DNA of 64,000 nt from the NCBI RefSeq assembly GCF_003018255.1, contig NZ_CP027440.1. One strand, written 5' to 3'. The stretch comes from Escherichia coli. GTDB taxonomy: Bacteria; Pseudomonadota; Gammaproteobacteria; Enterobacterales; Enterobacteriaceae. Below, piece after piece: positions 1,947 through 30,011 of this stretch; within the stretch, counting starts at the first letter, position 1; each line of letters starts with the position of its first letter. Both the position numbers and the translations under genes were made by a program. The notes beneath the pieces are model-generated. The model saw only the letters and a program-made list of their open reading frames with translations. It ran no database searches and was not told the DNA's origin.

Positions 1947-3238
1947 TCCAGACCTCCCGGTGTGCTGGCCTGCTGGTATTTCACCTGACGGCCTTCCGGC
2001 TCGTAGTCGATAGACAGCGCTTCGGTGAGATGCACCGCCACCTTGTGGCCCGGCGGCACGTACACGGCGTCGAACATCTGGCCGTAGTGCTGTTTCATCC
2101 AGTCGGCGGTCTCTTTCAGCCCGCCGCCAATAGCCTGGCCGAGCACGTACTGACCGTTGTTGCCCGTCACTGCGCTGGTGATGCTGCCGTCCTCGACCAC
2201 TGTGGTGCTTTCGCCATTGGCGAAGGCCTGCGCCGCCGCACCGGAACCCGCCAGCAGGAACTGCGAGGTCAGGTACTCCTTCGCATTGCTTTTACGCTCG
2301 CCGGGAATACATGGCAGCCCCTGGTTATCCGAAAGCCAGCCGATCTCCTGCTGTTTGTTGCCGGATTTGCCGCCCTGCGGGACGGTGCGGATGATGCCGT
2401 CGTGAAACACAAAGGTCATCGAGGTGATTTGCCCGCGCACACAGGAGAGCGTCCAGTCTCCCGAGGCGATGCCGGAGACCACCGCGCCCGCCACGTCCGG
2501 CAGCTCAACGCCATTGGCGGTGAGGTTGTCCTCGCCAATCAGAAGTTTAAACGGGTAGGGATCGCTGACGGTGCCGTTAAGCGGCACGCGGCCAATCAGC
2601 GCCGTCATCGCCACCGATCCGGTCAGCGTGGCGTTCTGCGGCAGGGTGTAGACCTTCACGTCAGGTTTCGGCGGTGGTTTGTCGGCCGCTTTCAGAGGGA
2701 CGCGCAGCAGCTTTTCATCCACAGGTGGAGGCGCATCCAGCGGCTCCAGCCAGCGGATATCGGGTTGAACGTCGGCAGGTAGTTCGCCGGGCGTCAGCCC
2801 CAGACCGGGCGGGATATCGTCCGGGCGCTTGGCCATCAGACGGTCGAGCTTATCCAGCAGCCCGCGCTGGCTTTTCACCAGTTCATCGCGCATCTGGTCC
2901 TGCTGGCGGCGCATGTCTTCCCGAAGCTGAGAGGCCAGCGTGGCCTGCTGTGCGTTAAGCCGTTTTTCGCGCGCCTGCTGGCTTTCGTTGTTTGTCTGGA
3001 TTGCCTGAAGTTCGCGGCGGTACTGTTTCATCTGGCCGACCAGCGTGGCGACGGTGTCGGCGGGCGTGTCGCCGTCGATGCCCAGATCGCGCAGTTCCTG
3101 CGGCGTTAAGGCCGCCACGGTGCGGGACAGGGAAGTCTCCTGCGTGTTTTTGCTGGCCGGGCGCAGCAGCAGCCATACCGTTACCAGTACGATGAGCGGC
3201 AGCAGGATTTTCAGCAGCAGGCTCTGGCGCGGCATCAT
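1943..3238 (-). CDS. ICE T4SS protein (PFL_4705-like), N-terminal TM helix, coiled-coil middle
   Basis: 431 aa ORF; hydrophobic N-terminal segment; GC-rich codon usage like flanking ICE genes; 4-nt overlaps. Confidence 0.5.
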   Translation of the reverse strand: MMPRQSLLLKILLPLIVLVTVWLLLRPASKNTQETSLSRTVAALTPQELRDLGIDGDTPADTVATLVGQMKQYRRELQAIQTNNESQQAREKRLNAQQATLASQLREDMRRQQDQMRDELVKSQRGLLDKLDRLMAKRPDDIPPGLGLTPGELPADVQPDIRWLEPLDAPPPVDEKLLRVPLKAADKPPPKPDVKVYTLPQNATLTGSVAMTALIGRVPLNGTVSDPYPFKLLIGEDNLTANGVELPDVAGAVVSGIASGDWTLSCVRGQITSMTFVFHDGIIRTVPQGGKSGNKQQEIGWLSDNQGLPCIPGERKSNAKEYLTSQFLLAGSGAAAQAFANGESTTVVEDGSITSAVTGNNGQYVLGQAIGGGLKETADWMKQHYGQMFDAVYVPPGHKVAVHLTEALSIDYEPEGRQVKYQQASTPGGLE

Positions 3239-4002
3239 GGTTTGGGCTCCGGCAGCAGGGCGCGGGAAACCGGACCTTCCGTCACCAGGTACGCCACGGT
3301 GGTATCTTCTGCCAGACCACGCGGGCCGAGCCAGTCATGCTGGAACGCGGCAGCGGTGAACTGCCCCTGAAGCTCGCGCGGATCGAGCGTGATGCGCTGT
3401 CCGCTGTGATTTTGCAGGCGGATGGCGGTGACGGTGGTGGCGTTGACCTGCCATGACGCCAGCGGGGTGGCGGTAACCGGCTGCTGCGGCAGTAAAGTGG
3501 TGATGCGTTTCGCCAGCCGGACGGGCGCAGGTGTGACGCCGGGCAGGGCTTCGACGGTGCGCAGCGGCGCATACAGATTTTGCGCGGCGTAGCGCACCAG
3601 CAAGACGGGCAGAGGTTCTGTTGATGCTGTCACCGGGACGGATGTTTTTGCTGTGGCAGGCGTCTGCGGCGTATAGCTAATTTGCATTGGTTCAAGTGTC
3701 GAAGTGCCCTGGGTGGCATGAATATCCAGCAGGATCAGCTCACCGTTGCCGGTATCACGTAACTGGATGCGGGTGGCCGGGAACGCCGTGTTCGCCAGCA
3801 GGAAGACCTTGCCGCCTGCGCTTTGCAGACGCACTTTGCCTTCCAGCGTGGCGGGATAGCCAATGCGCACCGGTTTACCCACGTCAACAATTCGCTCCTG
3901 CCCGACATGCAGCGTGACGGGCAGCGGGATGTTTTCCCACTGCACCACTTCCGTGGCGAAGGCGGGGAAACTGAACAATAAAGTAAAGAGGACTGGCTTC
4001 AT
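3235..4002 (-). CDS. ICE T4SS exported protein (PFL_4704-like)
   Basis: ORF track 3235..4185, trimmed to the internal ATG at 4002 (MKPVLFTLLFSFPAFA signal peptide) that overlaps the upstream stop as ATGA. Confidence 0.5.
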   Translation of the reverse strand: MKPVLFTLLFSFPAFATEVVQWENIPLPVTLHVGQERIVDVGKPVRIGYPATLEGKVRLQSAGGKVFLLANTAFPATRIQLRDTGNGELILLDIHATQGTSTLEPMQISYTPQTPATAKTSVPVTASTEPLPVLLVRYAAQNLYAPLRTVEALPGVTPAPVRLAKRITTLLPQQPVTATPLASWQVNATTVTAIRLQNHSGQRITLDPRELQGQFTAAAFQHDWLGPRGLAEDTTVAYLVTEGPVSRALLPEPKP

Positions 4003-4658
4003 GGTTTCTCCTCCGCCACCAGACGCTGCGGCGCGGCATCGGTACAGTCGATCGCCAGTCCCCACGGATTTTTCTCCGCATCGATGGCGTAGCGCACCAC
4101 CTGCAACGGGTAGCGCACCAGCGCTTTTTTCACCGGCTCGTTCTGGTAGTACTCTTCCACCGCCACATCCAGCGTTACCCGCCATGAATCCCGGCTCAGC
4201 GCCTCCACGCGCGGGAAGGGGCGCTTCTCGCCCTCATGCACCAGGCTGCTGTAGCCGTGGCCGGGCAGTTCATAGACGCCGCGCGTGCGGTCGCGCAGTT
4301 CACCGCCGTTGCGACGCACCTGAAAATCGTGCTCCAGCCGGGTGTAACAGGCGGGCGTCAGGTAGGCACGCAGCGAACGAAGATTACGGGAATAGTCCTC
4401 CTCGCCGTTATCCGGCCAGCGGTTAAGCTGCTGGAAGATATAAAAGGTGAAGGCGTAGACGCTGGCGGGAGGCACTTCCCACCACGGGCGGGTGCTGCCG
4501 CTGCGCAGATCCGGCGGGAACCAGAGGGTGAGCTTTTGCGGCGCGCTGTACCAGCCGTAGCCGACGCCCGCCAGACACAGGCACAGCAGAACAATCACCG
4601 CCCGCAGCGTCAGGATATGGTTATCGCGCTCAGCCAGCGCATGGCGAAAGCGGCTCAT
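3999..4658 (-). CDS. ICE T4SS membrane protein (PFL_4703-like)
   Basis: ORF track 3999..4682, trimmed to ATG at 4658 overlapping upstream stop (ATGA); one TM helix (VIVLLCLCLAGVGYGWY). Confidence 0.5.
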   Translation of the reverse strand: MSRFRHALAERDNHILTLRAVIVLLCLCLAGVGYGWYSAPQKLTLWFPPDLRSGSTRPWWEVPPASVYAFTFYIFQQLNRWPDNGEEDYSRNLRSLRAYLTPACYTRLEHDFQVRRNGGELRDRTRGVYELPGHGYSSLVHEGEKRPFPRVEALSRDSWRVTLDVAVEEYYQNEPVKKALVRYPLQVVRYAIDAEKNPWGLAIDCTDAAPQRLVAEEKP

Positions 4659-5008
4659 CGTGGACTCCTGCGCACCACCCACACGGCGCTGTGCTGGATC
4701 AGTTGTGCGCCGCGAAGATGATGACGCTCCAGCCAGGCGAGGAGCGCCTGCGGCAGCCAGGTGTCGGGCTTACCGCGTTTTGCGCGGGCCAGAATCCGCC
4801 CACCACCCTGAATCAGTAATGCCGCGCCAGCAAGTGCCGAACCGGGGATCAACGGCCAGTAGTGGGTTATCAGGGCCAGCAGAATGCCGAACGCACAGCC
4901 GCCGCCAAGACCGAGAGCCAGCGCCAGAAACAGTTCGCTGGTGGTGAGGCCGCGCCAGACCACGGGCTCGCGGTTGAGGCGGTCGGGGAGAAAGGGGATG
5001 GTTGCCAT
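4655..5008 (-). CDS. ICE T4SS membrane protein
   Basis: ORF track 4655..5137, trimmed to ATG at 5008 just downstream of the preceding stop; two hydrophobic helices. Confidence 0.45.
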   Translation of the reverse strand: MATIPFLPDRLNREPVVWRGLTTSELFLALALGLGGGCAFGILLALITHYWPLIPGSALAGAALLIQGGGRILARAKRGKPDTWLPQALLAWLERHHLRGAQLIQHSAVWVVRRSPR

Positions 5009-5009
5009 A

Positions 5010-5327
5010 TCACAGGACGTCCGAAGCCTGGTTGAGCAGCCAGATGATGACCACCAGAAGAATGCTGCCGACGCCTGCCATCGAGCCCAGATCTTTCCAC
5101 TGCTTGCGTCCGCTCTGGATCTCCGAATAGGTAGCAATACAGTTGTTCGCCACTACCAGAAAACCGACGGCACAGATGGCCAGCGCCAGCAGCACCACGA
5201 TGTCAAAACCGTAGTTTTGCAGCGTCTCCATAATGCCCTTGCCCTGACCGCGTGACGGATCTTCCATCGTCGGCAGGTCGGCGAGGGCGTTAAATGTGGC
5301 GAACAGCAGTAACAGAAACCAGCGCAT
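5010..5327 (-). CDS. ICE T4SS integral membrane protein (PFL_4702-like)
   Basis: 105 aa ORF with signal-like N-terminus and hydrophobic core. Confidence 0.5.
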   Translation of the reverse strand: MRWFLLLLFATFNALADLPTMEDPSRGQGKGIMETLQNYGFDIVVLLALAICAVGFLVVANNCIATYSEIQSGRKQWKDLGSMAGVGSILLVVIIWLLNQASDVL

Positions 5328-5336
5328 GATGCCTCC

Positions 5337-5570
5337 TCAGCTCAGTACCAGCCAGAAGCTGACTAGCACCAGTAACAGTGAATGGGCCGCCACCGCGCCA
5401 AAGCTCTGCCAGCTCAGACGCTGGCGGCAGACGCCCTGCCAGGCGACCATTAGCGTCCAGGCACACCACAGCAGCAGGACGCTGGTAAACAGGCCGAGCA
5501 CCAGCAGGCTGACGGTCTCCGGTTTGCTCAGGCTGGCGGCCTGAAAGGCGGCGAGTTGCGAGTCAGTCAT
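5337..5570 (-). CDS. ICE small membrane protein
   Basis: 77 aa ORF, two predicted TM helices, tightly packed in the operon. Confidence 0.45.
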   Translation of the reverse strand: MTDSQLAAFQAASLSKPETVSLLVLGLFTSVLLLWCAWTLMVAWQGVCRQRLSWQSFGAVAAHSLLLVLVSFWLVLS

Positions 5571-5871
5571 CGGGATTCTCCTGCTGGTAGTTGGCGCTCA
5601 GGGGCTGAATAGCACGCGGCTGTGCTCTAGCCGGGGCAAGATAGCGGCGAATGCCTTGTTCAACGACAGAGATGTCCTGCTGCGCCTGTAAGTAGTCGAA
5701 GAAGTAGCGCGCCTGCGGATCGTTGCTGGCGCTGGTCCGGGCGTGCTCCAGCGAGGTTTTAACGCCGTCGAGTTGCTTCAGCGCGAGGGCGAGCTGGGTG
5801 GATTCCGGGGAGGCGATTACCAGTACCGGGAAAGGTATTATTAACAGTAATAGTGCTGTCTGGGACTGCAT
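5563..5871 (-). CDS. RAQPRD-family integrative conjugative element protein
   Basis: 102 aa ORF with signal peptide and the family-defining motif (here RAQPRAI). Confidence 0.6.
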   Translation of the reverse strand: MQSQTALLLLIIPFPVLVIASPESTQLALALKQLDGVKTSLEHARTSASNDPQARYFFDYLQAQQDISVVEQGIRRYLAPARAQPRAIQPLSANYQQENPDD

Positions 5872-5938
5872 TTGAAGCTCTCCTTATACTCAATGATTAG
5901 CAAAGTAGGAGAGCTTCAGAGGTGAAGCAGCTAAAAAA

Positions 5939-7180
5939 TCATTTCACTACATGAAGAATTTTTAGCATAGAGTTGTCAATGGTCTGTTTGATTTTCTCGT
6001 AATAAATTGGTTCAGATAATGGCGAGTCCCAGGTATGTATATCATTTTTATCAAAGGGAATACATTTCATCGCTGTCTTTTTTAGTTTTTTCCCTTTTTG
6101 TTCGTACTCGTCAATGTCATTTACAGTGAATTTCAAACTTTCTATTCTTGCTTTGACTATTGCTGTTGGGCAGATGAGTTTTATATTCCCTAAAGTAAAT
6201 GTGTTAACTCCAGTAATGAAGAATCTATCAGGGATGTTTTTATAGTATCGAGTATTCCATATTTTACCATTAAACATACCTGCTGGGTGAGTTGCTCTTT
6301 CAATATAGTATTCATGGGTTCTCTGGTCACTAATCCCTGAAAGATTCATTGTCATATTAGCTATCATGTTGGGAATAGGTCTGTACCAAACGCTAAGTGC
6401 AGCGGTTGCGACAGGTATAAATATTAAAACAACAATAATTCCTGTCATTTTATTGCCGTTTTGCCGTTCATTAATATGTATGATACCAGGCAGAATGCCA
6501 ATTGTAACAATAACTACAGTTATGGCAATGAGTATGCTCATCTCATACCAGTCACTAGTACCCTCACTGAAATTAAGTTGGTTAAACAGAAACATCATTG
6601 GTAATATTTGTACTACTCCAGGTATTATAAGTTGTAAGGATAACCAGAAGTTGAATCCTTTCTTTCTGGATAGTTTTTCGTATCGCACTGTATTATTTAA
6701 GCGAGATTTTTGTTTTCTAAATAGCCGAATCGCACATGTAACATAGCTGTGAATAAATATGGAAATAATACTAAAGGCTGTAATTATGTAGCCATTCCAT
6801 TTTGTCATGTAATAAATGTAATAAGCAATGATTAGCAGGCAGCATATAAATAAGCTATTCTGATAGCAAACAGTAGAAATCCGATGGGTGATGCTAGAAT
6901 ATACCTTTAACTTGTTTTCATATCCAGAGTAAATAAGTATTAAAATAAAAGATGAGATGAAAATTATTAGGCTGAATCCTGATATCGATAATAAAATAAA
7001 AAAGAATATAATCCCTAAGGTTGAACTGAGGTTTACAGCATCGAAAAAAATATCTAATCTATCAATGTTTGATAGGTAAAACCATATAACTGCTATCGTG
7101 AATCCAGTGATGAAGGTAGATGAGGTTACTACTGAAATAATGAATTTTTTGTTTATGATATTAAAAATAGGTTTGTCCAT
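5939..7180 (-). CDS. AT-rich cargo protein: polytopic membrane N-terminal half (~8 TM helices) plus C-terminal soluble domain, unknown function
   Basis: 413 aa ORF; conspicuously AT-rich, I/K/N/Y-rich codon usage unlike the GC-rich ICE backbone; no recognisable catalytic motif. Confidence 0.6.
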   Translation of the reverse strand: MDKPIFNIINKKFIISVVTSSTFITGFTIAVIWFYLSNIDRLDIFFDAVNLSSTLGIIFFFILLSISGFSLIIFISSFILILIYSGYENKLKVYSSITHRISTVCYQNSLFICCLLIIAYYIYYMTKWNGYIITAFSIISIFIHSYVTCAIRLFRKQKSRLNNTVRYEKLSRKKGFNFWLSLQLIIPGVVQILPMMFLFNQLNFSEGTSDWYEMSILIAITVVIVTIGILPGIIHINERQNGNKMTGIIVVLIFIPVATAALSVWYRPIPNMIANMTMNLSGISDQRTHEYYIERATHPAGMFNGKIWNTRYYKNIPDRFFITGVNTFTLGNIKLICPTAIVKARIESLKFTVNDIDEYEQKGKKLKKTAMKCIPFDKNDIHTWDSPLSEPIYYEKIKQTIDNSMLKILHVVK

Positions 7181-7225
7181 GGTTTGAATTCCATCTCTAA
7201 AAAATTTCTTGTCTTGTGTTTTTTA

Positions 7226-7510
7226 TCACCAATTTACAGGTAAGCGCCGATGGGTATGAAACACGCGTAAAACCTGAATTATATTATTTCGTACTCGATA
7301 GGGAATGATATAAGGGTAATTATGAAGAATGAGCTCACGTGTTTCAGGTACCCTTCCTTCCCGGCCCATAGCGGGTTGCTCTTTGAGCAGTTGCGTAAGT
7401 CGCCAGACTTCGTTCACAAACCGTTCCGCAGCCTGCGGATCGTCTTCAGCAATATACCGGAACTCAGCTTCGAGATTGGCAATGGCTTTACGTAGCCACT
7501 TAATTTCCAT
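7226..7510 (-). CDS. Type II toxin, RelE/ParE family
   Basis: 94 aa ORF with RelE/ParE-like size and sequence; overlaps the upstream antitoxin gene by 11 nt. Confidence 0.7.
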   Translation of the reverse strand: MEIKWLRKAIANLEAEFRYIAEDDPQAAERFVNEVWRLTQLLKEQPAMGREGRVPETRELILHNYPYIIPYRVRNNIIQVLRVFHTHRRLPVNW

Positions 7511-7745
7511 CTGGCTTTACTCCCAGACGTTGAAACAGCTTATCCACCTCATCTGAAGTGGCAAAATCACCGGCATCAGCTTCCTGAATGGCCTGCTCAA
7601 TCTCTGCAACTTGCCAGGCCTCCCGGGCAACATAATCTTCAATTGCCTGATTTGCCAGCCAGGACTTTGAGCGTCCGGTCGCTTTTGATAATGCTTCCAG
7701 TTGCGTGGAAAGATTGTTGTTTAAACGGACTGACATTACGCCCAT
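7500..7745 (-). CDS. Type II antitoxin, ribbon-helix-helix (ParD/CopG-like)
   Basis: ORF track 7500..7820; likely start ATG at 7745 (MGVMSVRLNNNLSTQLEALSKATGRSKSWLANQAIEDYV); ~80 aa, immediately upstream of and overlapping the toxin. Confidence 0.6.
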   Translation of the reverse strand: MGVMSVRLNNNLSTQLEALSKATGRSKSWLANQAIEDYVAREAWQVAEIEQAIQEADAGDFATSDEVDKLFQRLGVKPDGN

Positions 7746-7810
7746 ATTGGTGGCCTCATACACATGTACACATTGTATACATTGTAGTGAGGTGCGATTT
7801 TTTGAGCAAC

Positions 7811-8458
7811 TTATAACCAACGTTTAAAGCTTCCTGCTGCCATCCATACCGCTATCCCGGACCATAAGGCGGCAGGAAGTAAAACCAGCATCGCGGGCAG
7901 AGAAAATGGCTGCGCCAGATAAACCACCCAAAGCGTGGTGGTGACTGAACTGCCGCACCTGATGACATAACGGTGGAGAAAAATGGATTCCAGCCCGGAG
8001 CCAAACCGTCTTAAATCCCGGTGTACCAGGCCTTCTGTCAGCCCGGTTACAGCACTGAGGCACAGCAGTGGCAACATGATAACCAGCCACGTCAGGCGCA
8101 GCGCAAAGCTGATCATGGTATAAGCCAGGACGGTAACGGGTTCGTGGAACAACCGACTCACGGCCTTATGTCTGACATCATTAACGCGGGTTATTCCATG
8201 CTCCAGCAGTACTCGTATCTCTTTCCCCAAAGGATGTGGCTGTACCGCAATAATCAGTTCCACCTTCTCCTGCCTCATCACCTGAAAAACATGCCTGCTC
8301 CCTTCCTGCGGCCACCAGAAATATAGCCCCACTAGTTCCAGCACCACTCGCAGCACCAGCGTACCGATAACCAGCCCAATAATCCGTCCGGCCAGTGACA
8401 ATAGCCAGCCAATCGGTCCCTGTGGTGGGCGTGACGGAGGCGGTCGCAGCTCACTCAT
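7811..8458 (-). CDS. ICE membrane protein (PFL_4695-like)
   Basis: ORF track 7811..8527, trimmed to ATG at 8458 overlapping the traD stop (ATGA); multiple TM helices. Confidence 0.5.
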   Translation of the reverse strand: MSELRPPPSRPPQGPIGWLLSLAGRIIGLVIGTLVLRVVLELVGLYFWWPQEGSRHVFQVMRQEKVELIIAVQPHPLGKEIRVLLEHGITRVNDVRHKAVSRLFHEPVTVLAYTMISFALRLTWLVIMLPLLCLSAVTGLTEGLVHRDLRRFGSGLESIFLHRYVIRCGSSVTTTLWVVYLAQPFSLPAMLVLLPAALWSGIAVWMAAGSFKRWL

Positions 8459-21210: not shown

Positions 21211-23157
21211 ATGAATTTTGAAGAGCTTATAAATGATATTGAAAGACTCTTAATTGGTAAAGAGTTGCAGTCTATAAATCCTAACACCCCCCCATTATTC
21301 CTTTTAAAAATAGACAGGGATATTGGTAAATATTACGTGTCTGTTTCTTTAAATGCTAAGCCTACGGCAAGGTCAATTTCTGAATTTGAATATATATTTA
21401 ATGACTTACTGCGTAAAGGGTTTTGTAATGTAGATCAGTCATTATATGGTAGCTCTTCAAGCCGTAATCACCCGGAAACAATATTTGCAAACTTGCCTTA
21501 TATTCAATTCTTTAAGTTCAAGAAAAAGAAACATATATTATTACGTAATAAAAATGTACACGAAGCAGGTCAACTTTCTGAATTACAAGGGGCTGAGTCT
21601 CGTGCTATAAGGAAGCAAATAGAAAATTATTTATCTCTAAATTTAAGTGAAATTGCAGAGCAGCAGTTAAAATCGTTGGAAAAAATGTTCGATGCGTATG
21701 ATGCTATTTTAAAAAAATACCCAGGGGATATCCCTGTTATAATGGCTGAGCAAGGCTTGTTGGGATTAAAAAACATTAGCGAAGTACTGATTAATTCTTA
21801 TGTTTCCTTGGATTTTGACAGTAGTGGCGATAAAATAAATAAATTAAGTAAATTTAAACAGGTGGAGTTATTTAAAGAAGATTTATCTTTAGAGGATTTA
21901 ATTGAGTCCCCTGAGATAAGTGGAGTTGATTCAGGTGATAAGAATATTGAGGAACAATCGGAATCAGAATTAGCACCTGAGCAAAAACGTACGGGCATTG
22001 CAAAAATGCTTATGACTACACCAGTTTTAACACTAATTTTTGATCGTGTAAGATATGATGAAATTGAGTTACAACCTGACTTTCAGAGAAAAGACCGAAT
22101 TTGGCCTGACGACAAAAAGTCAAAACTTATTGAATCAATATTAATGAAGCTTCCATTACCGGGGTTTTACTTTGGTGAAAAGCCAAACGGTAACTGGGTA
22201 GTTATTGATGGCCTTCAAAGAACGACTACAATTTGTGATTATATGAGTGGTCATTTCTCATTGAAAGGGCTCTCTATTTTAGAGCACTTAAATGGAAAGA
22301 GTTTTAAAGATCTTACTCGAACCGAGCAACGAGACATTAGAGAGTATCAAATTACGGCTTACCAAATAGAACTAAATGATGATAGTTCTGAATTGGTTGT
22401 AGAACTATTCCATAGAATAAACACTTATGGTGTAAAGTTAAGTAGTCAAGAAATAAGATCTGCACTTAATAAAGGCAATAGCGTAACCTTTTTACGTTAT
22501 TTAGCTTCATTAGAAACGTTCAAAAAAGCGACGCAATTTAAAGTAAAGCCGGACAGGCAAAAAGATATGGAGCTCTGTTTGTCCGCTCTTGCTTTTATGG
22601 TACTTGGTTATAATAACTATGGCCAACATTCGTATGATCATTTTTTATGTAGTGCAATGCAGAAGCTAAATAATTATCCATTAAGCATCATTAATAAAGA
22701 AGAGATTGATGCTGGAACAGCTCTTATTTCTCCTTCAAGTGAAGTCTTTTTAACTTTATATTCAAAATATAATCAGGCTTTAATCTTAGCAAATGAAGTT
22801 TTTGGTGAAATAGCTTTTTCAAAAGATCCGGAAAATAAAAAATCACCTATTAATAAACAACTCTTTGAGTTAATTGTTACTGTTTTCTCTGTATTTGACT
22901 CACATCAAAAGGAGATGATGTTAGCTAATGGTGATAAATTTATTGATAGCTTATACTTGGCTATTGAGGAGAATAGTAGTCGATATGCTAAGTGGGAGTC
23001 TGATACATATGAAAAGGACGATAGAGGATTTAGAGACTCAATATCTACTTCGACAGGTAAAAGAATATCTGTTGTATATCGATTTGATGCTTTTTTAAAT
23101 ATCCTTGGAAAAAGCACAGGAATAACTATTGATAGTAAATTATTACAGGGGGAGTGA
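21211..23157 (+). CDS. DUF262 / ParB-like (GmrSD N-terminal-type) domain protein with unknown N- and C-terminal domains
   Basis: 648 aa; central region has LQPDFQRKDRIW and DGLQR (variant of the DGQQR motif); no recognisable DUF1524/His-Me nuclease motif; AT-rich. Confidence 0.7.
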   Translation: MNFEELINDIERLLIGKELQSINPNTPPLFLLKIDRDIGKYYVSVSLNAKPTARSISEFEYIFNDLLRKGFCNVDQSLYGSSSSRNHPETIFANLPYIQFFKFKKKKHILLRNKNVHEAGQLSELQGAESRAIRKQIENYLSLNLSEIAEQQLKSLEKMFDAYDAILKKYPGDIPVIMAEQGLLGLKNISEVLINSYVSLDFDSSGDKINKLSKFKQVELFKEDLSLEDLIESPEISGVDSGDKNIEEQSESELAPEQKRTGIAKMLMTTPVLTLIFDRVRYDEIELQPDFQRKDRIWPDDKKSKLIESILMKLPLPGFYFGEKPNGNWVVIDGLQRTTTICDYMSGHFSLKGLSILEHLNGKSFKDLTRTEQRDIREYQITAYQIELNDDSSELVVELFHRINTYGVKLSSQEIRSALNKGNSVTFLRYLASLETFKKATQFKVKPDRQKDMELCLSALAFMVLGYNNYGQHSYDHFLCSAMQKLNNYPLSIINKEEIDAGTALISPSSEVFLTLYSKYNQALILANEVFGEIAFSKDPENKKSPINKQLFELIVTVFSVFDSHQKEMMLANGDKFIDSLYLAIEENSSRYAKWESDTYEKDDRGFRDSISTSTGKRISVVYRFDAFLNILGKSTGITIDSKLLQGE

Positions 23158-24305
23158 TGAAAAAAATTACGTCTTTAACATTAAAAAATTTCAAAGCTTA
23201 TAAAGAACAGAGTTTTGATTTTAGTAATTTAACTGTATTTTGCGGTAATAATTCTGTTGGTAAAAGTACGGCTATTCAAGCTATCGGTATGTTTCTCCAA
23301 TCAGATATGAATGGTAACAGTAATCTAAAAATAAATGGCGATTTAGTTCATGTCGGAGACTTCGACGATATTCATAATTTCAGTATGCGTGAGGATGATG
23401 TTTTATATTTAAAATATACATTTGAAGACGATACGGCTTGCTGGGGATATGGTATAGAAGAAGGGGATGCTAGAGAAGAACTTTCTAGGAAAAATGAATT
23501 ACCTTTTATTGGGTGTGATAAACAATTAAGAACTATAACAAACTCACTTAAAGATAACTTTTCATTCCAATATTTGGAAGCGGAGAGATTTGGTCCAAGA
23601 GATAATATTCCATTATCACAGCACAATTATCATGAAGGTTGGCTTGGGAAAAATGGGGAACATACAATTGAAGTTCTTGAGAGTTTGGTCACAAGGAGGC
23701 GTTTAAATTTTTCTGCTCAAGAGGATCCTAGGAAACATGAAGGAATTATTAATAATAATGTTTTCAATCATATTGAAGCATGGATGTCTGAGATTTCACC
23801 AGGGCATCGTATCTCACCTAGAATTGAGGCTAGGGCGAATGTTGCATTTAATGTCATAATCCCTTCACCTGGACAATTAACGAAACCTATTAACATAGGA
23901 TTTGGATTTAGTTATGCTCTTAGTATTGTCACTGCTTTAATGCTGGCATCAAAAAATGAACTCGTTATTATTGAAAATCCTGAGGCTCATCTACATCCAA
24001 GAGGTCAAAGCTATTTAGGACGACTTATTGCTTTATCAGCAAAAGCAGGGATCCAGGTTATTATTGAGACTCATAGTGATCATCTTCTTAATGGCATAAG
24101 AGTAATTGCACGCACAGATCCAACTTTTGATGCTTCTCTTTTTACTCTTTACTATATTTCACGAGAAAATGATGAAACATCTGTCGCCAAAATAAAAATA
24201 AATAATGAAGGGAAACTTTCCGAATGGCCTAGAGGGTTCTTTGATCAACAATCACAGGATATGTATACGATAATGACAGGCTCTTTTGATCATCCCAATA
24301 TTTAA
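23157..24305 (+). CDS. ABC/SMC-like AAA ATPase (AAA_15/AAA_21-type with DUF3696-like C-terminal region)
   Basis: ORF track 23154 (GTG); ATG at 23157 overlaps upstream TGA (TGATG) with GGGGAG RBS. Walker A GNNSVGKST; ENPEAHLHP Walker B/D-loop signature; ETHSDH H-loop. Confidence 0.75.
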   Translation: MKKITSLTLKNFKAYKEQSFDFSNLTVFCGNNSVGKSTAIQAIGMFLQSDMNGNSNLKINGDLVHVGDFDDIHNFSMREDDVLYLKYTFEDDTACWGYGIEEGDAREELSRKNELPFIGCDKQLRTITNSLKDNFSFQYLEAERFGPRDNIPLSQHNYHEGWLGKNGEHTIEVLESLVTRRRLNFSAQEDPRKHEGIINNNVFNHIEAWMSEISPGHRISPRIEARANVAFNVIIPSPGQLTKPINIGFGFSYALSIVTALMLASKNELVIIENPEAHLHPRGQSYLGRLIALSAKAGIQVIIETHSDHLLNGIRVIARTDPTFDASLFTLYYISRENDETSVAKIKINNEGKLSEWPRGFFDQQSQDMYTIMTGSFDHPNI

Positions 24306-24324
24306 TATTGTAGGGACATATAAA

Positions 24325-25209
24325 ATGAAAGCTGGCGTGTTTCTTATTCCTGAATGTTTTGATTTCAATACGGATATTTTATCTTTAAGTTCGGACCTTG
24401 ATCTGGCTTCGAAACTCGTAGTAAATACCCGTTCAGAATTTATTCACTTTATGAAATCTAGGGAGTTTGACTCGAAGATTGCGGAGTTATTGTTTTCCAC
24501 ATCACCTGATTATGCTGGAATGATGTCAAGATTTTACGATCAGCATCTATCAAAAGTTATAAAAATGGATATTAATGACGATGATATTATTGATATTATA
24601 AATAGCGAAGAACCTAAGTATTCTAACCGTTTGTTATCAATTTTTAATACGGGAAAAAAAGATTTAAATATTAAATATGTTAATAGATTAATTGACTCAG
24701 AAATTAAGATGAATGATTATTGTACTGATATCTTATTGAATTACCCAAGAAATGACGAGCAATACTGTGAGGATATACAGCAGGTTTATAAAAATTTAAT
24801 TTTCCTAGATTATCCAGAGGCAAAAGAATTTAAGACATTTAATAGTCTCAAGAGAATGACCGGTGGTTATGATAATTTCTTGAAGGCTATAACCAATTTT
24901 TTAAGTTATATGAATAAATTCGAATTCAAAACGAAAGATATGATGGATACATTGAAAATGATGGAGAGTGATTTAGGATCTCCAGTAACTCCGGAAGGAG
25001 GGGGGAAGAAAAGCCGATCTTTGAAAAGAGATTTTTTAATTAATGGAAAGCTATATACAAATGTAAACTGCGAATTCCATTTGAAATTAGAAAATGTTGA
25101 TGATACTAAGGGAAACAGAAAACACCATAAGAATAGAATTTATTTTGGATTTATTATGATAAGTGATAAAAACAGAGTGGCAATAGCTCATATTGGGGAA
25201 CACATTTGA
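24325..25209 (+). CDS. Hypothetical protein, third gene of the DUF262-ATPase operon
   Basis: ORF track 24286..25209; ATG at 24325 with AGGGA RBS follows the ATPase stop by 20 nt; 294 aa, no recognisable motif. Confidence 0.5.
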   Translation: MKAGVFLIPECFDFNTDILSLSSDLDLASKLVVNTRSEFIHFMKSREFDSKIAELLFSTSPDYAGMMSRFYDQHLSKVIKMDINDDDIIDIINSEEPKYSNRLLSIFNTGKKDLNIKYVNRLIDSEIKMNDYCTDILLNYPRNDEQYCEDIQQVYKNLIFLDYPEAKEFKTFNSLKRMTGGYDNFLKAITNFLSYMNKFEFKTKDMMDTLKMMESDLGSPVTPEGGGKKSRSLKRDFLINGKLYTNVNCEFHLKLENVDDTKGNRKHHKNRIYFGFIMISDKNRVAIAHIGEHI

Positions 25210-25219
25210 AATCATTTTA

Positions 25220-25248
25220 AACCTACTGATAGTATATATCAGTAGGTT
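25220..25248. terminator. Perfect palindromic hairpin between convergent operons (likely bidirectional terminator)
   Basis: AACCTACTGATAGTATATATCAGTAGGTT between stop of the plus-strand operon (25209) and stop of the minus-strand restriction gene (25271). Confidence 0.5.
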
Positions 25249-25270
25249 CATGTTAATTTGATGTTCTTAG

Positions 25271-26344
25271 CTATATAACACAATCTTCCATAAAAGAATC
25301 TAGAAATAAATCATTTATTCCTTTAGGTTTTCTTCGGTCGCATAGAGAGTATAATTCTTCAACTGAAGAGTAAGGGAAGAATTTAGCTTTTAATTCAATG
25401 AATTGGGGCATGTTTGCAAATTCTATCACCTTTGCTCGATATTCATCAGGAGCAACGATAGTCCAACGGATATCTTGTAATCTCGGTGCATGATCATAGA
25501 ATTGTTTCATGCGAGTCAGACCACTTTTTATACCAGTACTGTGTTCAATCTCCATTACTGCTGGCATCATGCGGCCTTCCCTAAACCAAATGCAGTCTAT
25601 AAGACGAGCATCTTTAATCGCATCATTATACGATTGGAGTACTTGCTCATCAGATAATGAACTTATTACACCGTCCATTTGCGCTATAGCTTTACCATTA
25701 TATTGTAAGCTACGATCATTGGCTGCTACCCAAGTATCTAAACCTAAACAATAACCTATTTTTACTAAGGCAATTTGTATCTGAGCATGACGTCTTTTTT
25801 CTTCAATAGTCATGCCTTTAGTCGGTTTAATTGTCTCAATATCAACGCTTTGGTGAACAACATCGAAGCTCATTTCAGAGACAACAATATTAGTCTGGTG
25901 CTCAATTAACAAACCATTAGTATGTGGCATATCTGGCAGAAAAATCAGATGCTTATGTCCTGGTTTTATAGACTTTTGTGCATTCATGATTTCCAGTCTG
26001 GCTGGCCTACACCAATAGAACTCTGGAGTATGTGCGAGCAAGCTCTCCAATACCGAGCGGGTGTTGTAACTGGCACCGAAAACCCTTTCAACGTTGACAG
26101 GTCTGTTTTCTTCGAGTGCATTTGCAAGTCGCCAAAGCATTTGAGTCGAAATACTCTCTGTTTTAGCTGTTGCTTGAGTTTGACCTTTCTTAGGATCAAA
26201 TCTCTTTATTTCGATAGGACCTTCGGGATGTTGGATACGTACAATCTCAATCTTCCCGCTATTCCTATCGTTTATATAGTTAAACAGCGTATTTTTGGGT
26301 AAGCTCGAAATCGCCTGAACCAGATTCGATGCTGTTATCCTCAT
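25271..26344 (-). CDS. Putative Type II restriction endonuclease partnered with the adjacent C5-methyltransferase
   Basis: 357 aa ORF directly downstream of and overlapping the MTase 3' end (about 65 nt, ATG at 26344 with AGGA RBS); no family motif recognised; call is from gene context. Confidence 0.5.
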   Translation of the reverse strand: MRITASNLVQAISSLPKNTLFNYINDRNSGKIEIVRIQHPEGPIEIKRFDPKKGQTQATAKTESISTQMLWRLANALEENRPVNVERVFGASYNTRSVLESLLAHTPEFYWCRPARLEIMNAQKSIKPGHKHLIFLPDMPHTNGLLIEHQTNIVVSEMSFDVVHQSVDIETIKPTKGMTIEEKRRHAQIQIALVKIGYCLGLDTWVAANDRSLQYNGKAIAQMDGVISSLSDEQVLQSYNDAIKDARLIDCIWFREGRMMPAVMEIEHSTGIKSGLTRMKQFYDHAPRLQDIRWTIVAPDEYRAKVIEFANMPQFIELKAKFFPYSSVEELYSLCDRRKPKGINDLFLDSFMEDCVI

Positions 26345-27419
26345 TACTGTATCCTAAATGTTGCAAAATTGATTGGGCAATACCGAGCGCGGCGATATAG
26401 GGAACTCCGTTTCCGACTGTTTTAAACATATTCGACAAAGTCATATCCCCTGGTAGCTCAAAATTTTTTGGCAAAGACTGGATTGCCAATGCTTCAGCGA
26501 CCGTAATACGACGAGGTTTGTATGGGTGAAGGTGAACTTCATTATTACCATATGCTGCTGTTGGAGAGTATCTCCAGCGATGAAGCCTTTTATATGATTT
26601 TTTACTATCGTCGCCTTCTTCTACTGACTGGAATCTTGCTAAACCGGCTCGGGCCGTAAATACATGTTTAGCGTTTGGATGATTGGTAACATCGTTTTTC
26701 TCGAACCAGTATTCTATAGTAAGTTCTTCTGGAATACCTTGCGGGCATTCCATACTTGAGTCTTCTTCGTATGTGTTTGTTGTTGGCCAAGGGAACTGGA
26801 AAGCTTCCTTATTGGGGTATATTTGGCCACTCCATTCGAAGTTTTTGGCTAAAGACTTATCAAGAAAACCAACTAAAATAATCCTTTCTCGATCTTGAGG
26901 CGCACCGTATTCAATTGAATTAATCAATCTTTCATGCAGGATATATCCTACTGAAGCTAGTTCATTCTTAATTTGTTCGAAAAATTCTCTATGTTTAAGA
27001 GTCCGGTATAAGCCTTTAACGTTTTCAAAAAGGAAGAAATCAGGCATCATTTCAATTATCAGGTCAATGTAACTTTGTGATAATTTGCCATTTTCACCAT
27101 CTTTGCCTTTGTTTTTGCCAGCAACAGAAAAGTCAGGGCATGGTGGTCCGCCAATGAAGCCCACTAGGCGGTTTTCACCTTTCAGTGTTTTCATGCTATG
27201 CTTAATCACTGAATGCTCAATAGTTTCAATGCTTTCTTGGGCATACCCAAAGCGTGGCGGCTGTTTGCCAAGTTTTTTTCTTGAGTGTTTATACGCGTCC
27301 ATGAAGGGAGGATGGAATTCATTGACGAAAACCACCTCATACCCGGCATTTTCGAAGCCTAGGTCAAGAAAACCTGATCCTGAAAAGAATGAAAATATAG
27401 CGGGTTTCATTGTGGACAT
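26280..27419 (-). CDS. DNA cytosine-5 methyltransferase (Dcm-like)
   Basis: 379 aa; motif I FSGSGF, PC motif GGPPCPDFSVAGK, ENV motif ENVKGL. Confidence 0.85.
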   Translation of the reverse strand: MSTMKPAIFSFFSGSGFLDLGFENAGYEVVFVNEFHPPFMDAYKHSRKKLGKQPPRFGYAQESIETIEHSVIKHSMKTLKGENRLVGFIGGPPCPDFSVAGKNKGKDGENGKLSQSYIDLIIEMMPDFFLFENVKGLYRTLKHREFFEQIKNELASVGYILHERLINSIEYGAPQDRERIILVGFLDKSLAKNFEWSGQIYPNKEAFQFPWPTTNTYEEDSSMECPQGIPEELTIEYWFEKNDVTNHPNAKHVFTARAGLARFQSVEEGDDSKKSYKRLHRWRYSPTAAYGNNEVHLHPYKPRRITVAEALAIQSLPKNFELPGDMTLSNMFKTVGNGVPYIAALGIAQSILQHLGYSNEDNSIESGSGDFELTQKYAV

Positions 27420-27644
27420 TTTATACCTATCAAGTTAGCTTAAATTTTTACTAAATATCTCGCTGTACGATCCTACTATTTTACATGATAACTTGTTAAT
27501 TATCAATTTACTTTTTAATATATTAGCAAATAAGACCTGGCACTACTTCAGATTAGATAGTATTCATTGCTATAAAGTTAGGTGTTAATATATTGATTAA
27601 TAGTATAAGCTGCTATTATAGATTTAGAAACCGAAGGAACTTAT

Positions 27645-28100
27645 ATGCCTGATATGAGGTTATTTAAATCAAAAAACACCAAACTTGAGTTAAGAATCAG
27701 GAAGCCGTTGTTTGCCAGAGGATTTCGTTATCGATTGCATAATAGTGGTTTGCCTGGTAGACCAGATATGTATTTCCCTAAATACAATGCAGTCATTTTT
27801 ATCCATGGCTGTTTTTGGCATGGGCATGATAACGGCTGCCCTATATCTCACACTCCTAAAAATAATGAATCGTACTGGCAAAATAAAATCAATAAAAATC
27901 AAGAAAGAGATGTCAAAAATCAATATGTTCTTGCATCTAAAAACATCCGCGTTCTGATTATATGGGAGTGTGCAATAAAACTTAAAAGTATTGATTTTGT
28001 CGATTTTATTGATTACATCGATGAATGGCTTAGAGGTGGGGCAAATTCAACACAGATGAGCGCAAAGGAACCAATGCCGACTTTTGAGTTTCCGAAATGA
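27645..28100 (+). CDS. vsr: Very short patch repair endonuclease (Vsr)
   Basis: 151 aa; Vsr-like sequence incl. FIHGCFWHGH; divergent from the C5-MTase as is typical. Confidence 0.85.
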   Translation: MPDMRLFKSKNTKLELRIRKPLFARGFRYRLHNSGLPGRPDMYFPKYNAVIFIHGCFWHGHDNGCPISHTPKNNESYWQNKINKNQERDVKNQYVLASKNIRVLIIWECAIKLKSIDFVDFIDYIDEWLRGGANSTQMSAKEPMPTFEFPK

Positions 28101-28282
28101 ATTATTATGACAAGTTCCCTTGAGTGGTAATATCTAACATCGTTATTTGCTAATATATATATGAAATAAAGTAATTGCCAAGAAATTTATTACAAAACAA
28201 GACCCGCAAAAAATCTCTTTCCATGTGGGGTTTTATTAGCTATTAGTGTTTGGTTAAATTATTAACCATCAATAGGCATCCT

Positions 28283-28423
28283 ATGCTTCAATCTCTGAAC
28301 CACTTAACGCTCGCCGTCAGTAATTTGCAAACTAGCCTGACATTCTGGCGCGATTTACTAGGGCTACATGTGGGAGATTTAGCATCCCGACTGACGCAGT
28401 GCCGGGAGAGGCCTTGCTCTTGA
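28283..28423 (+). pseudogene. fosA: Remnant of a fosA-like (glutathione transferase, fosfomycin resistance) gene with large internal deletion
   Basis: 46-codon ORF MLQSLNHLTLAVSNLQTSLTFWRDLLGLHVGDLASRLTQCRERPCS: first ~28 aa match the FosA N-terminus and the rest matches the FosA C-terminal HVGSLAARLAACRE region, from memory. Confidence 0.45.
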
Positions 28424-28555
28424 ATGCGTTTCGGACCTGGAAAATAATTACGCAACTTTGTGATCTTCCACCCAGTATTCAATTTTATGTCCCATTTTGG
28501 GGGCAAATCCTCAAAATAAAATCTCACAAACCATTATTTTTCAACGAATTAAACG

Positions 28556-28588
28556 CAAAGGCGAGTCCGGCCTTCGACCTTCGCACCA
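28556..28588. repeat. Degenerate copy of the 3' end of tRNA-Leu (leuX): candidate distal att repeat (attR) of the genomic island
   Basis: GCGAGTCCGGCCTTCGACCTTCGCACCA resembles the leuX 3' end GGTTCGAGTCCGGCCTTCGGCACCA (from memory); no full tRNA present. Confidence 0.45.
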
Positions 28589-29353
28589 TCGGAACATCAA
28601 TAGACGTCAACGGACGTTTTTTTATGACTGAAATCCGCGCCACACAAGGCTTTTCGCTATTTTTCGCTCAACCTAAGTCAACCTACATCAACTTACTGAT
28701 GTGGATACAGCTACAGCTGCGGCTATATCCCGATTCGATAATGTTTGTACCCACACAAAACCCTTGAAAGGCTACAAGGCTGAAATTGTCTAAACCATAG
28801 AGATGATTTTTATGATCCAGTCTTTCTCTTGTTGAGATAGTTCCAGTTTGCTCACTCGTGTTAAGAAGGTATTGATCACCTGAACATCCGAATTGGTGAG
28901 CCTATTTAATAGAGCGGGTGGTATACCTTTACTAACAATCGCTTTGCGGTGACTTTCGTAGTTTTTATTACTCATTGTTGATCCTCAAAAATCATTGTAT
29001 GGCGGCATTGATCGTTTCCAGCAACCTTTACTTACTCACTTCGAACTGCATCCTCGTAGACTGTTCCACTACAATAATCGAAAAGGCGCGGATGTCCATT
29101 CAGGTATCCCGCTAATACGTATAGCAATAACAATGGCTTATGCGGCGCGCGCTGTTCACCCTTGTGCCAGATTTTTATATTGGCAATTGCCTGCTGTAGC
29201 GATTTACTGGAAGCCATTGATATCCCTGGCAGTGAAATAATTGCGATCATGCTCGCAAATTTTCTGCTGTTCAAGCCTGCAAGTGAAGATATATTACCTT
29301 GATCTCATTTGTTTTTTTGCTGCCTGTTCTGAGAACGTATAAGGACATTCTCC

Positions 29354-30004
29354 ATGAATAAACTCCCTGATCATCTTCCGCGGCGGTATATCATCGAAGC
29401 TATCCATTTATGGGATGCGGGAGAAACTCATCAGTTCCAGCCTGCGCGGTTGTATGAGATTGAATATCATGGCCGACGTTACCCCTCGAAGGCGATTGCT
29501 GGCATCGCAGCGACATTGATGACGGGGACGCAATTTACCCCTGCGGATTTCACCGGCGGAATAAAATCTAAATGCGTCAAACTACTCATAGAGCAGGGAT
29601 TTCATATTCATCAGGATAAAGCCGCTGCGGCTCCCATAGCCGACGTTCTGTTCCCGGATGAGTTGCCGTCGCAGGAGACATACCTTGAAGGTGCGGCGAT
29701 AAAGGTGACAGTAAACCGCTATGAACGCGATAAAAAGGCCCGAGATAAAGCGGTCGAACATCATGGATGCCAGTGCAACGTATGCGGCGTTGATCTGGTG
29801 AAGATCTATGGTGATATCGCTGAAGGCTTTATCCATATGCATCACCTGGTGCCGCTTTCAGCCATTAAAGAGGATTACCAGCTGGATCCAGTTAATGATT
29901 TGCTGCCTGTGTGCCCTAATTGCCATGCGATGCTGCACCGACGCAAACCACCGTTTTCACCGGAGGAGTTAAAAGCGTTGATGGATGCAAATAAATCAAA
30001 TTAA
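29354..30004 (+). CDS. HNH endonuclease with uncharacterised N-terminal domain
   Basis: 216 aa; C-terminal HNH motif CQCNVCG...HMHHLVPLS...N...CPNCH. Confidence 0.7.
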   Translation: MNKLPDHLPRRYIIEAIHLWDAGETHQFQPARLYEIEYHGRRYPSKAIAGIAATLMTGTQFTPADFTGGIKSKCVKLLIEQGFHIHQDKAAAAPIADVLFPDELPSQETYLEGAAIKVTVNRYERDKKARDKAVEHHGCQCNVCGVDLVKIYGDIAEGFIHMHHLVPLSAIKEDYQLDPVNDLLPVCPNCHAMLHRRKPPFSPEELKALMDANKSN

Positions 30005-30011
30005 TGAACGC

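Follow-up and report, generated by a model that had tools for sequence, protein, structure and literature searches.

A candidate envelope-acting exclusion or defence gene in a recurrent cargo hotspot of an Escherichia coli integrative and conjugative element

The locus described here lies in a 64,000-nucleotide stretch of Escherichia coli DNA (contig NZ_CP027440.1 of assembly GCF_003018255.1), which is referred to below as the window and to which all positions refer unless another locus is named. An NCBIfam scan and the RefSeq annotation assign positions 1 to ~30,000 of the window to an integrative and conjugative element (ICE) of the PFGI-1/SPI-7/PAGI-2 class, the transfer genes of which are all encoded on the minus strand. 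Among them, between a DUF4400/DtrJ gene and a RAQPRD gene, sits a minus-strand trio formed by a ribbon-helix-helix (RHH) antitoxin gene, a ParE toxin gene and a gene for a 413-aa membrane protein, and it is this last gene and the place that it occupies that are discussed below. In the direction of transcription, the order is TraD, DUF4400/DtrJ-like gene, RHH, ParE, 413-aa gene, a 67-nt spacer with an inverted repeat, and RAQPRD (Table 1). An initial annotation, made from the letters of the DNA, had placed three genes between the RAQPRD gene and the upstream ICE membrane-protein gene, and all three are found there, on the minus strand and with coordinates in agreement. The same annotation had described the 413-aa gene as AT-rich against a GC-rich backbone, and the composition bears this out: the 413-aa gene has a GC content of 0.32, the two toxin-antitoxin (TA) genes are at 0.46-0.48 and the backbone genes on either side at 0.58-0.62. 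The segment from 4655 to 10473 matches the chromosome of E. coli JNE23-011 (NZ_AP045067.1) at 100%, and a second Japanese isolate is identical.

Table 1. Features of the TraD-RAQPRD region, with their positions in the window, strand and supporting evidence.
Feature	Position	Strand	Evidence
TraD gene	8455-10473	-	TIGR03754 match
DUF4400/DtrJ-like ICE membrane protein gene, conserved upstream boundary of the hotspot	7811-8458	-	NCBIfam TIGR03747, E 9.5e-37; RefSeq
Putative cargo promoter and TA operator	7765-7809	-	Read from sequence
RHH (CopG/RelB-like) antitoxin gene, 81 aa	7500-7745	-	Pfam RHH_3, RHH_1, RHH_5; RefSeq WP_001561302.1
ParE/RelE-superfamily type II toxin gene, 94 aa	7226-7510	-	Pfam ParE_toxin PF05016, E 1.5e-17
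572-bp stretch (operator and both TA genes) missing in the Salmonella ICE allele	7208-7779		BLASTN breakpoints, junction sequences
Gene for 413-aa polytopic inner-membrane protein, unannotated family	5939-7180	-	ORF, homologue clusters, predicted topology
Inverted repeat / RNA hairpin, 3' arm with the RAQPRD Shine-Dalgarno sequence	5873-5919	-	Exact repeat; RNA folding
RAQPRD-family ICE gene, conserved downstream boundary	5563-5871	-	TIGR01690, 92.8 bits

In ICEs of the PFGI-1/PAGI-2 class there is a recurrent cargo hotspot between traD/DUF4400 and RAQPRD, and the region is one of its alleles. The ICE backbone is present in 44 of the 5,426 complete E. coli genomes that were compared, and in these the gap between DUF4400 and RAQPRD is occupied by five mutually exclusive cargoes. 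The RHH/ParE/413-aa trio is found in 2 genomes; an AAA ATPase and HNH pair in 1 (PADLOC: PtuA, 1.5e-186, and PtuB-like PDC-M01B, i.e., Septu); an anti-phage dCTP deaminase with a small open reading frame (ORF) in 4 (PADLOC dCTPase, 2.9e-165); a TIR protein with a DUF4231 protein in 5 (PADLOC ThsB-like TIR, 2.6e-18); and a DUF1848 protein with a 265-aa partner in about 29 (PADLOC RTasDUF1848, DRT-associated, 1.9e-40). This last and commonest E. coli allele (positions 1959-3688 of locus L021) contains no complete recognised defence system, its 265-aa protein having a weak methyltransferase-like PADLOC match, and it is a further candidate. According to BLASTN, the homology of the backbone to the sister ICEs stops exactly at the stop codon of DUF4400 (position 7811) and, from BLASTN and alignment, it returns only at ~5805-5818, within the part of RAQPRD that encodes the signal peptide. 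The first ~20 RAQPRD codons (~5806-5871) are part of the variable segment, as they differ among the cargo alleles, and the signal-peptide codons are AT-richer than the remainder of the gene; since these codons vary with the cargo allele, each cargo carries its own RAQPRD 5' end and ribosome-binding site. No empty site was seen among the E. coli ICEs compared. The locus shows the features by which a hotspot is recognised, namely the TraD/DUF4400 and RAQPRD flanks, a variable content in related elements and an enrichment of known anti-phage systems. The initial annotation had seen here non-backbone cargo inserted inside the type IV secretion operon. The cargo status is supported by the differing cargoes of the sister ICEs, and the idea of a one-off insertion has to be abandoned, since the place is a recurrent hotspot that had already been described in Pseudomonas islands (PMC12629846).

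The hotspot itself is already known, since the slot between traD and RAQPRD has been published as "GI-Hotspot 8" of the Pseudomonas PAGI-2/PAGI-3/LESGI-3 islands (NAR Genom Bioinform 2025; PMC12629846). A known defence system was reported in 29.3% of >40,000 instances of this hotspot, and instances were found in Salmonella, Serratia and Klebsiella as well (PMC12629846). The slot described here belongs to the same ICE family and has the same flanks, as well as fixed boundaries enclosing a variable and defence-rich content. It differs in its host, E. coli, and in its present set of cargoes (Septu, dCTP deaminase, TIR with DUF4231, DUF1848, and TA with the 413-aa gene), the Pseudomonas set being dominated by CBASS. 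The 413-aa family is unnamed in that study and stands among its uncharacterised proteins (PMC12629846). What is added here is the placing of the boundaries, one at the stop codon of DUF4400 and the other within the signal-peptide part of RAQPRD, by which the GI-Hotspot 8 concept is extended from Pseudomonas into E. coli with base-pair boundaries. Hotspot 5 of the SXT/R391 ICEs is likewise a slot between conserved genes that is exchanged by recombination and holds anti-phage systems, in other elements and with other flanks. The P2/P4 hotspots are comparable too, in that a fixed slot between conserved genes of a mobile element is swapped by recombination among alternative anti-phage systems, although the elements and the flanks are again different (PMC9122126).

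The downstream end of the variable segment contains the inverted repeat. It had been reported as an 11-bp repeat just downstream of the 413-aa gene, and it is indeed exact (TGAAGCTCTCC at 5873-5883 and GGAGAGCTTCA at 5909-5919). As RNA, it folds into a hairpin of -26.5 kcal/mol (z = -3.9; 0 of 200 shuffled sequences fold as well), and the 3' arm of this hairpin is the Shine-Dalgarno sequence of RAQPRD (AAGGAGAGCUUCAAAUG). The anti-Shine-Dalgarno arm and the core of the stem are kept, despite a diverged spacer, in two related ICEs, from Salmonella (L005, ~7262-7300) and from the lineage represented by L035 (~8262-8300), pairing in L035 being achieved via a G.U wobble; the unrelated dCTP-deaminase allele (L003) has an analogous CTCTCC/GGAGAG pair upstream of RAQPRD. 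These observations suggest that the hairpin is a translational control element of RAQPRD, which is the mating-pair gene that comes first after the hotspot. Two other explanations of the repeat were discarded: an insertion scar or target site, given that the Shine-Dalgarno sequence of RAQPRD forms one arm and that an analogous pairing exists in the unrelated allele, and an intrinsic terminator, because there is no U-tract. A scan of the region with Rfam gave no match.

The antitoxin and toxin genes overlap by 11 nt and, judging by their sequences, are an ordinary ParE/RHH module of addiction and autoregulation. The initial assignment to an RHH antitoxin and a RelE/ParE toxin is upheld by the Pfam matches listed in Table 1; in NCBIfam, the antitoxin matches a RelB-like model with an E of 1.3e-11, under the curated cutoff, and the toxin matches TIGR02385 with 26.5 bits, below the cutoff of 27.9. 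The antitoxin had first been drawn at 7500-7820, and that span is right as to the gene and wrong as to its start, having been taken from the longest ORF with a TTG start; RefSeq and a conserved ATG give the shorter frame of Table 1. Upstream of the pair there is a putative promoter (-35 TTGCTC at 7809-7804, a 17-nt spacer, and -10 TACAAT at 7786-7781), followed after the -10 by two palindromes, TGTATACA (7781-7774) and TGTACA (7770-7765). The arrangement is that of the ParDE/RelBE modules, in which an RHH antitoxin gene overlaps the gene of a ParE-fold toxin and a palindromic operator is found at the promoter, and the only unusual feature in the present case is the third gene, on the same strand and 45 nt downstream of parE. 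The consensus scan for promoters and terminators was swamped by AT-rich matches; it did not list the TTGCTC/TACAAT element because the -35 fits the consensus at 3 of 6 positions, and it found no minus-strand terminator, with none between parE and the 413-aa gene. The TA cassette was not found elsewhere in the 5,426 E. coli genomes, and the idea that it is an independently mobile unit was rejected on this ground.

The history of the allele can be read from two related ICEs. The one represented by L035 and L036 (TraD 86% identical) has the full trio, with identities of 78% for the RHH protein, 84% for ParE and 74% for the 413-aa protein, together with the same contrast in GC; the -10 and both palindromes are conserved in L035. 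Because a second ICE lineage carries the trio at 74-84% identity, the trio is old and has co-diverged with the ICE. The other, from Salmonella enterica (L005; TraD 95% identical), has in the gap the 413-aa gene alone, with 73% protein identity. Its allele corresponds to a clean 572-bp deletion (Table 1), from which the palindromes and both TA genes are gone: the sequence is retained up to CTACAATG, including the TTGCTC/17-nt/TACAAT element, and is then joined to a spacer that resembles the spacer between parE and the 413-aa gene in L035. In Salmonella, the 413-aa gene would thus stand directly under the TA promoter deprived of its operator, and the TTGCTC/TACAAT element would act as the promoter of the cargo. 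Since no terminator follows parE and the promoter is retained at the Salmonella deletion junction, the 413-aa gene may be regarded as the third gene of the TA operon, and the trio is probably a three-gene unit transcribed from the TA promoter. With this wiring, expression of the 413-aa gene would be expected even with the transfer operon silent. The TA pair is nevertheless dispensable for the 413-aa gene, because the Salmonella ICE keeps the latter alone, and the suggestion in the initial annotation that the pair and the membrane-protein gene are separate modules is in agreement with this.

The meaning that had been given to the AT-richness of the 413-aa gene, as a mark of separate acquisition, does not stand, because in the second ICE lineage the trio has diverged along with the element and shows the same contrast in GC, and because low GC characterises the family: across 13 hosts the gene has a GC content of 0.29-0.44, which is 0.10-0.25 under that of its flanks. 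On the same two grounds, low GC was rejected as a sign of recent insertion. The initial annotation had itself named, as an outcome that would tell against it, the finding in related ICEs of the same genes at the same position with backbone-like GC; the genes are found at that position, and their GC is not backbone-like. A further observation comes from E. coli C10 (NZ_CP010132.1). Its ICE has the dCTP-deaminase allele, and a 73%-identical copy of the 413-aa gene is present at another place on the chromosome. As this strain carries both separately, the family gene and the ICE backbone are inherited independently.

The linkage of the trio raises the possibility of a tripartite system, in which the ParE/RHH pair would sense infection or stress through loss of the antitoxin and would derepress or activate the membrane protein as an abortive-infection effector acting, for example, by membrane depolarisation. 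The common strand, the gap of 45 nt without a terminator, the promoter/operator upstream of the whole unit and the conservation and co-divergence of the trio in the second ICE lineage are consistent with it, as is the plasmid pIP1206, on which a RelE/ParE-RHH pair lies 600 bp from a distant family member. Such a system is quite unlikely, however, as the Salmonella 413-aa gene is under purifying selection without the TA pair and an adjacent operonic ParE/RHH pair is found in 0 of roughly 18 other contexts of the family. Moreover, with TA pairs so frequent on mobile elements, proximity is expected now and then by chance, and the 413-aa protein is predicted to have almost no cytoplasmic surface for the reception of a signal.

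The 413-aa ORF is a real gene under purifying selection, with a dN/dS of 0.10-0.14 among the ICE alleles. The initial annotation had allowed for the case that the ORF has no homologues, and many were found: 54 clusters at 90% identity in Enterobacterales, and 227 clusters at 50% identity, nearly all of 370-430 aa and aligning end to end, which reach Pseudomonas and Halomonadaceae. An intact copy, 73% identical, is present in a CP4-57-like island in 92 further E. coli chromosomes. A distant full-length member of 389 aa (hhalign probability 99.95%, E 3e-38) has RepFIB and a tyrosine recombinase as its neighbours on IncF plasmids, and by tblastn the family is represented on 1,245 plasmids, of which 1,066 are from Escherichia. 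The distant members, of 383-389 aa, are a near-universal "hypothetical protein" of IncF plasmids (pIP1206, L032 at 4212-5381; also L033 and L031). As a whole, the family extends over Gammaproteobacteria and is present on >1,200 plasmids, most IncFIB replicons among them, as well as in about 2% of the complete genomes of E. coli. Against these data, the proposal that the gene is a decaying or silenced AT-rich remnant without current function is effectively refuted. Its very low GC would attract silencing by H-NS, the topoisomerase III gene of this ICE is a pseudogene, which may indicate degeneration, and the Mixta copy of the family is split into two ORFs, but conservation over the full length in 227 clusters, the low dN/dS, the intact ORF in the 92 further genomes and a confidently predicted fold are contrary to a dead gene.

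This fold was obtained with AlphaFold2 (pLDDT 81.5, pTM 0.73) and, together with hydropathy, gives seven transmembrane (TM) helices (11-39, 52-86, 97-126, 130-152, 174-199, 210-240 and 244-265) and a C-terminal soluble domain of 145 aa. The initial annotation had counted about eight helices followed by a soluble domain, so that the domain is retained and the count is reduced by one. Between the fourth and fifth helices there is a predicted basic cytoplasmic loop (153-173), and the C-terminal domain (266-413) is predicted to be periplasmic. When the positive-inside rule was applied across 76 non-redundant members, the N-terminus and loop 153-173 came out as cytoplasmic and the C-terminal domain as periplasmic, the opposite loops being acidic. 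This topology would leave almost no cytoplasmic surface, the only sizeable soluble domain facing the periplasm. Over 58 diverse C-terminal domains only C337 and C373 are invariant, and these two cysteines probably form a periplasmic disulfide that stabilises the domain. Other conserved positions are found at the predicted periplasmic face, that is, W33/Y35/L36/R41/D43/F45 after the first helix and G282/D285/W308/P338. Searches of libraries were uninformative as to function. The protein and its family profile had no match in Pfam or NCBIfam and no informative match in PDB; in PADLOC-DB 2.0.0, 0 families matched the protein at E <= 1; in PHROGs the best match had an E of 0.31, with no passing stretch; and Foldseek against AFDB50 returned only relatives named "Uncharacterized protein". 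No fold or Pfam domain is shared with the envelope-modifying enzymes GT-C, Wzy/WaaL and acyltransferase-3, and a search of the literature by accession and keyword found no paper on the family.

The genomic contexts of the family were surveyed in about 20 neighbourhoods; a GTDB scan returned 8 loci, its peptide patterns reaching close relatives only. In all of them the gene is single, with no conserved partner, and nearly always it is placed on a recognisable mobile element or island. Apart from the ICE hotspot, in three lineages, and the position next to RepFIB-int on >1,000 IncF plasmids, the contexts include neighbouring defence or candidate defence genes. In Serratia the gene is 319 bp from a type I hsdM; in Brenneria McrBC and an orphan CdiI/RNase pair belong to the same locus, about 3 kb away; in Photorhabdus it has a SIR2-HerA pair on one side and an RT-ATPase locus on the other, with an integrase alongside; in Trabulsiella (L045) it is 102 bp from the candidate gene PDC-S02 (7215-8222, E 3e-80), which is followed by a type I restriction-modification (RM) system; in Siccibacter (L039) it is 130 bp from PDC-M15B (4998-5870, E 5e-92) at the edge of a prophage; and in Samsonia it is 1.5 kb from a PT-type HNH endonuclease. 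PDC-M15B and PDC-S02 are candidate defence genes of PADLOC and are themselves unvalidated. In Klebsiella and Kushneria the gene is directly downstream of integrases, in Dickeya it is part of the cargo of an int-AlpA-primase island, and in Xenorhabdus it is found at the end of an ICE, after TraG_N and 3 kb from a type I RM system. A record titled Collinsella sp. metagenome-assembled genome (L038) has a 68%-identical family gene among E. coli-like neighbours of the gentisate pathway, and it is probably a binning contaminant.

Some of these positions could also be those of a conjugation accessory, i.e., an entry or surface exclusion factor directed against redundant transfer of the same ICE. The 413-aa gene is within the mating-pair-formation operon and on its strand, the Xenorhabdus homologue follows TraG_N, which is the place of the eex/traS genes in other systems, and 944 of the 1,245 plasmid matches are on conjugative plasmids. 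A factor of this kind is very unlikely, given that only 2 of the 44 E. coli sister ICEs have the gene and that the same slot holds defence systems in others; that homologues are present in non-conjugative islands and at plain chromosomal sites; that the IncF copies are at RepFIB-int, outside the tra region; and that no TraS/Eex model of NCBIfam is matched. A different possibility is an envelope cargo unrelated to phages, either an immunity protein against a toxin acting on membrane or periplasm (a bacteriocin, a contact-dependent inhibition toxin or an effector of the type VI secretion system) or a modifier or binder of an envelope component. A polytopic membrane protein with a periplasmic domain has the typical build of immunity and envelope-modifying proteins; the conserved R41-x-D43 of the first periplasmic loop could, together with G282/D285, where the periplasmic domain begins, make up a site on the outer face of the inner membrane; the Brenneria copy is near the orphan CdiI/RNase pair; and the integrase-adjacent and prophage-edge positions resemble those of serotype-conversion morons. 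Even so, in none of the contexts surveyed is a toxin gene linked, and neighbours such as RM, McrBC, SIR2-HerA and PDC genes are far commoner than polysaccharide or toxin loci, all of which makes an envelope cargo of this type unlikely.

Both the hotspot and the TA pair have an explanation already, and what is new at this locus is an uncharacterised, widespread family of membrane proteins. For the 413-aa protein, the reading that we favour, with a probability of roughly 0.45, is that of a stand-alone envelope-acting protein of exclusion or defence, the likeliest mode of which would be to block or abort infection at genome entry. This role is proposed because the slot is used for defence, the neighbours are frequently defence genes, the positions are integrase-proximal and the predicted periplasmic domain is conserved and accompanied by little cytoplasmic surface. 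The initial annotation had offered exclusion, abortive infection or addiction; the first two are the best supported, since in the sister ICEs bona fide defence systems occupy the slot, and addiction is left to the TA pair. In such a scheme, the slot, which is exchanged by recombination, carries mostly anti-phage systems, the TA promoter would drive antitoxin, toxin and 413-aa gene as one unit, and the 413-aa protein would act at the interface of inner membrane and periplasm as a self-sufficient, single-gene function. Incoming phage or other foreign DNA would then be excluded or aborted at the entry stage, in a manner similar to superinfection exclusion (Sie), but with the gene carried by ICEs, plasmids and islands.

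Several points weigh against a role in exclusion or defence. The position in the slot is by itself weak evidence, because ~70% of the published GI-Hotspot 8 instances are without a known defence system (PMC12629846), and the survey of ~20 neighbourhoods was made without a matched background control. Several members of the family are found among ordinary metabolic genes. There is no homology to a known defence, Sie or abortive-infection protein in PADLOC, PHROGs, Pfam, NCBIfam or PDB, and the family is near-absent from phages, with no tblastn match in the 50,697 genomes of INPHARED and one match in IMG/VR, the Siccibacter prophage edge. The periplasmic location and the disulfide, finally, are predictions.

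Phage Sie proteins, such as P22 SieA, T4 Imm/Sp and HK97 gp15 (PMC11436027), offer a functional model, since they are single-gene inner-membrane proteins that act when the genome enters, at the step in the periplasm or the membrane, which for the 413-aa protein is proposed by analogy. They have no sequence similarity to the 413-aa protein, which is much larger (seven TM helices and the 145-aa domain) and is carried by ICEs, plasmids and islands. KwaA of Kiwa, ZorA/B of Zorya, RexB and the TM effectors of CBASS/Pycsar are also inner-membrane proteins from defence islands, but they work with cytoplasmic partners, whereas the 413-aa family has neither a conserved partner nor a PADLOC match. A more specific proposal, which is tentative and at present rather doubtful, is that the 413-aa protein founds a new and widespread family of single-gene envelope immunity proteins, in which a predicted disulfide-bonded periplasmic SH3-like domain on a seven-TM anchor would recognise the entry of phage or foreign DNA and block it at the inner membrane. 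The family is common on elements of clinical importance (IncF plasmids, ICEs of E. coli and Salmonella, and Klebsiella islands) and is repeatedly found in positions used by anti-phage systems. If the exclusion or defence role is true, a partner-less mechanism facing the periplasm would be added to a catalogue dominated by cytoplasmic sensors of nucleic acids, with a bearing on the host range in phage therapy and on the ecology of plasmids and ICEs.

Two other parts of the window concern the element as a whole. The topoisomerase III gene of the ICE (13886-15691) has an internal stop and the annotation lists it as a pseudogene, and because of this the present copy of the ICE may be impaired in transfer or replication. 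Close to the end of the ICE, a second defence-like cargo cluster (21212-30005) comprises DUF262, DUF3696 and a hypothetical gene (21212-25210); a hypothetical gene with a Dcm methyltransferase and Vsr (25272-28101); a fragment of a phosphorothioate-dependent restriction endonuclease (29069-29218); and an HNH endonuclease (29355-30005). Beyond this cluster the E. coli core genes nanM, nanC and fim follow.

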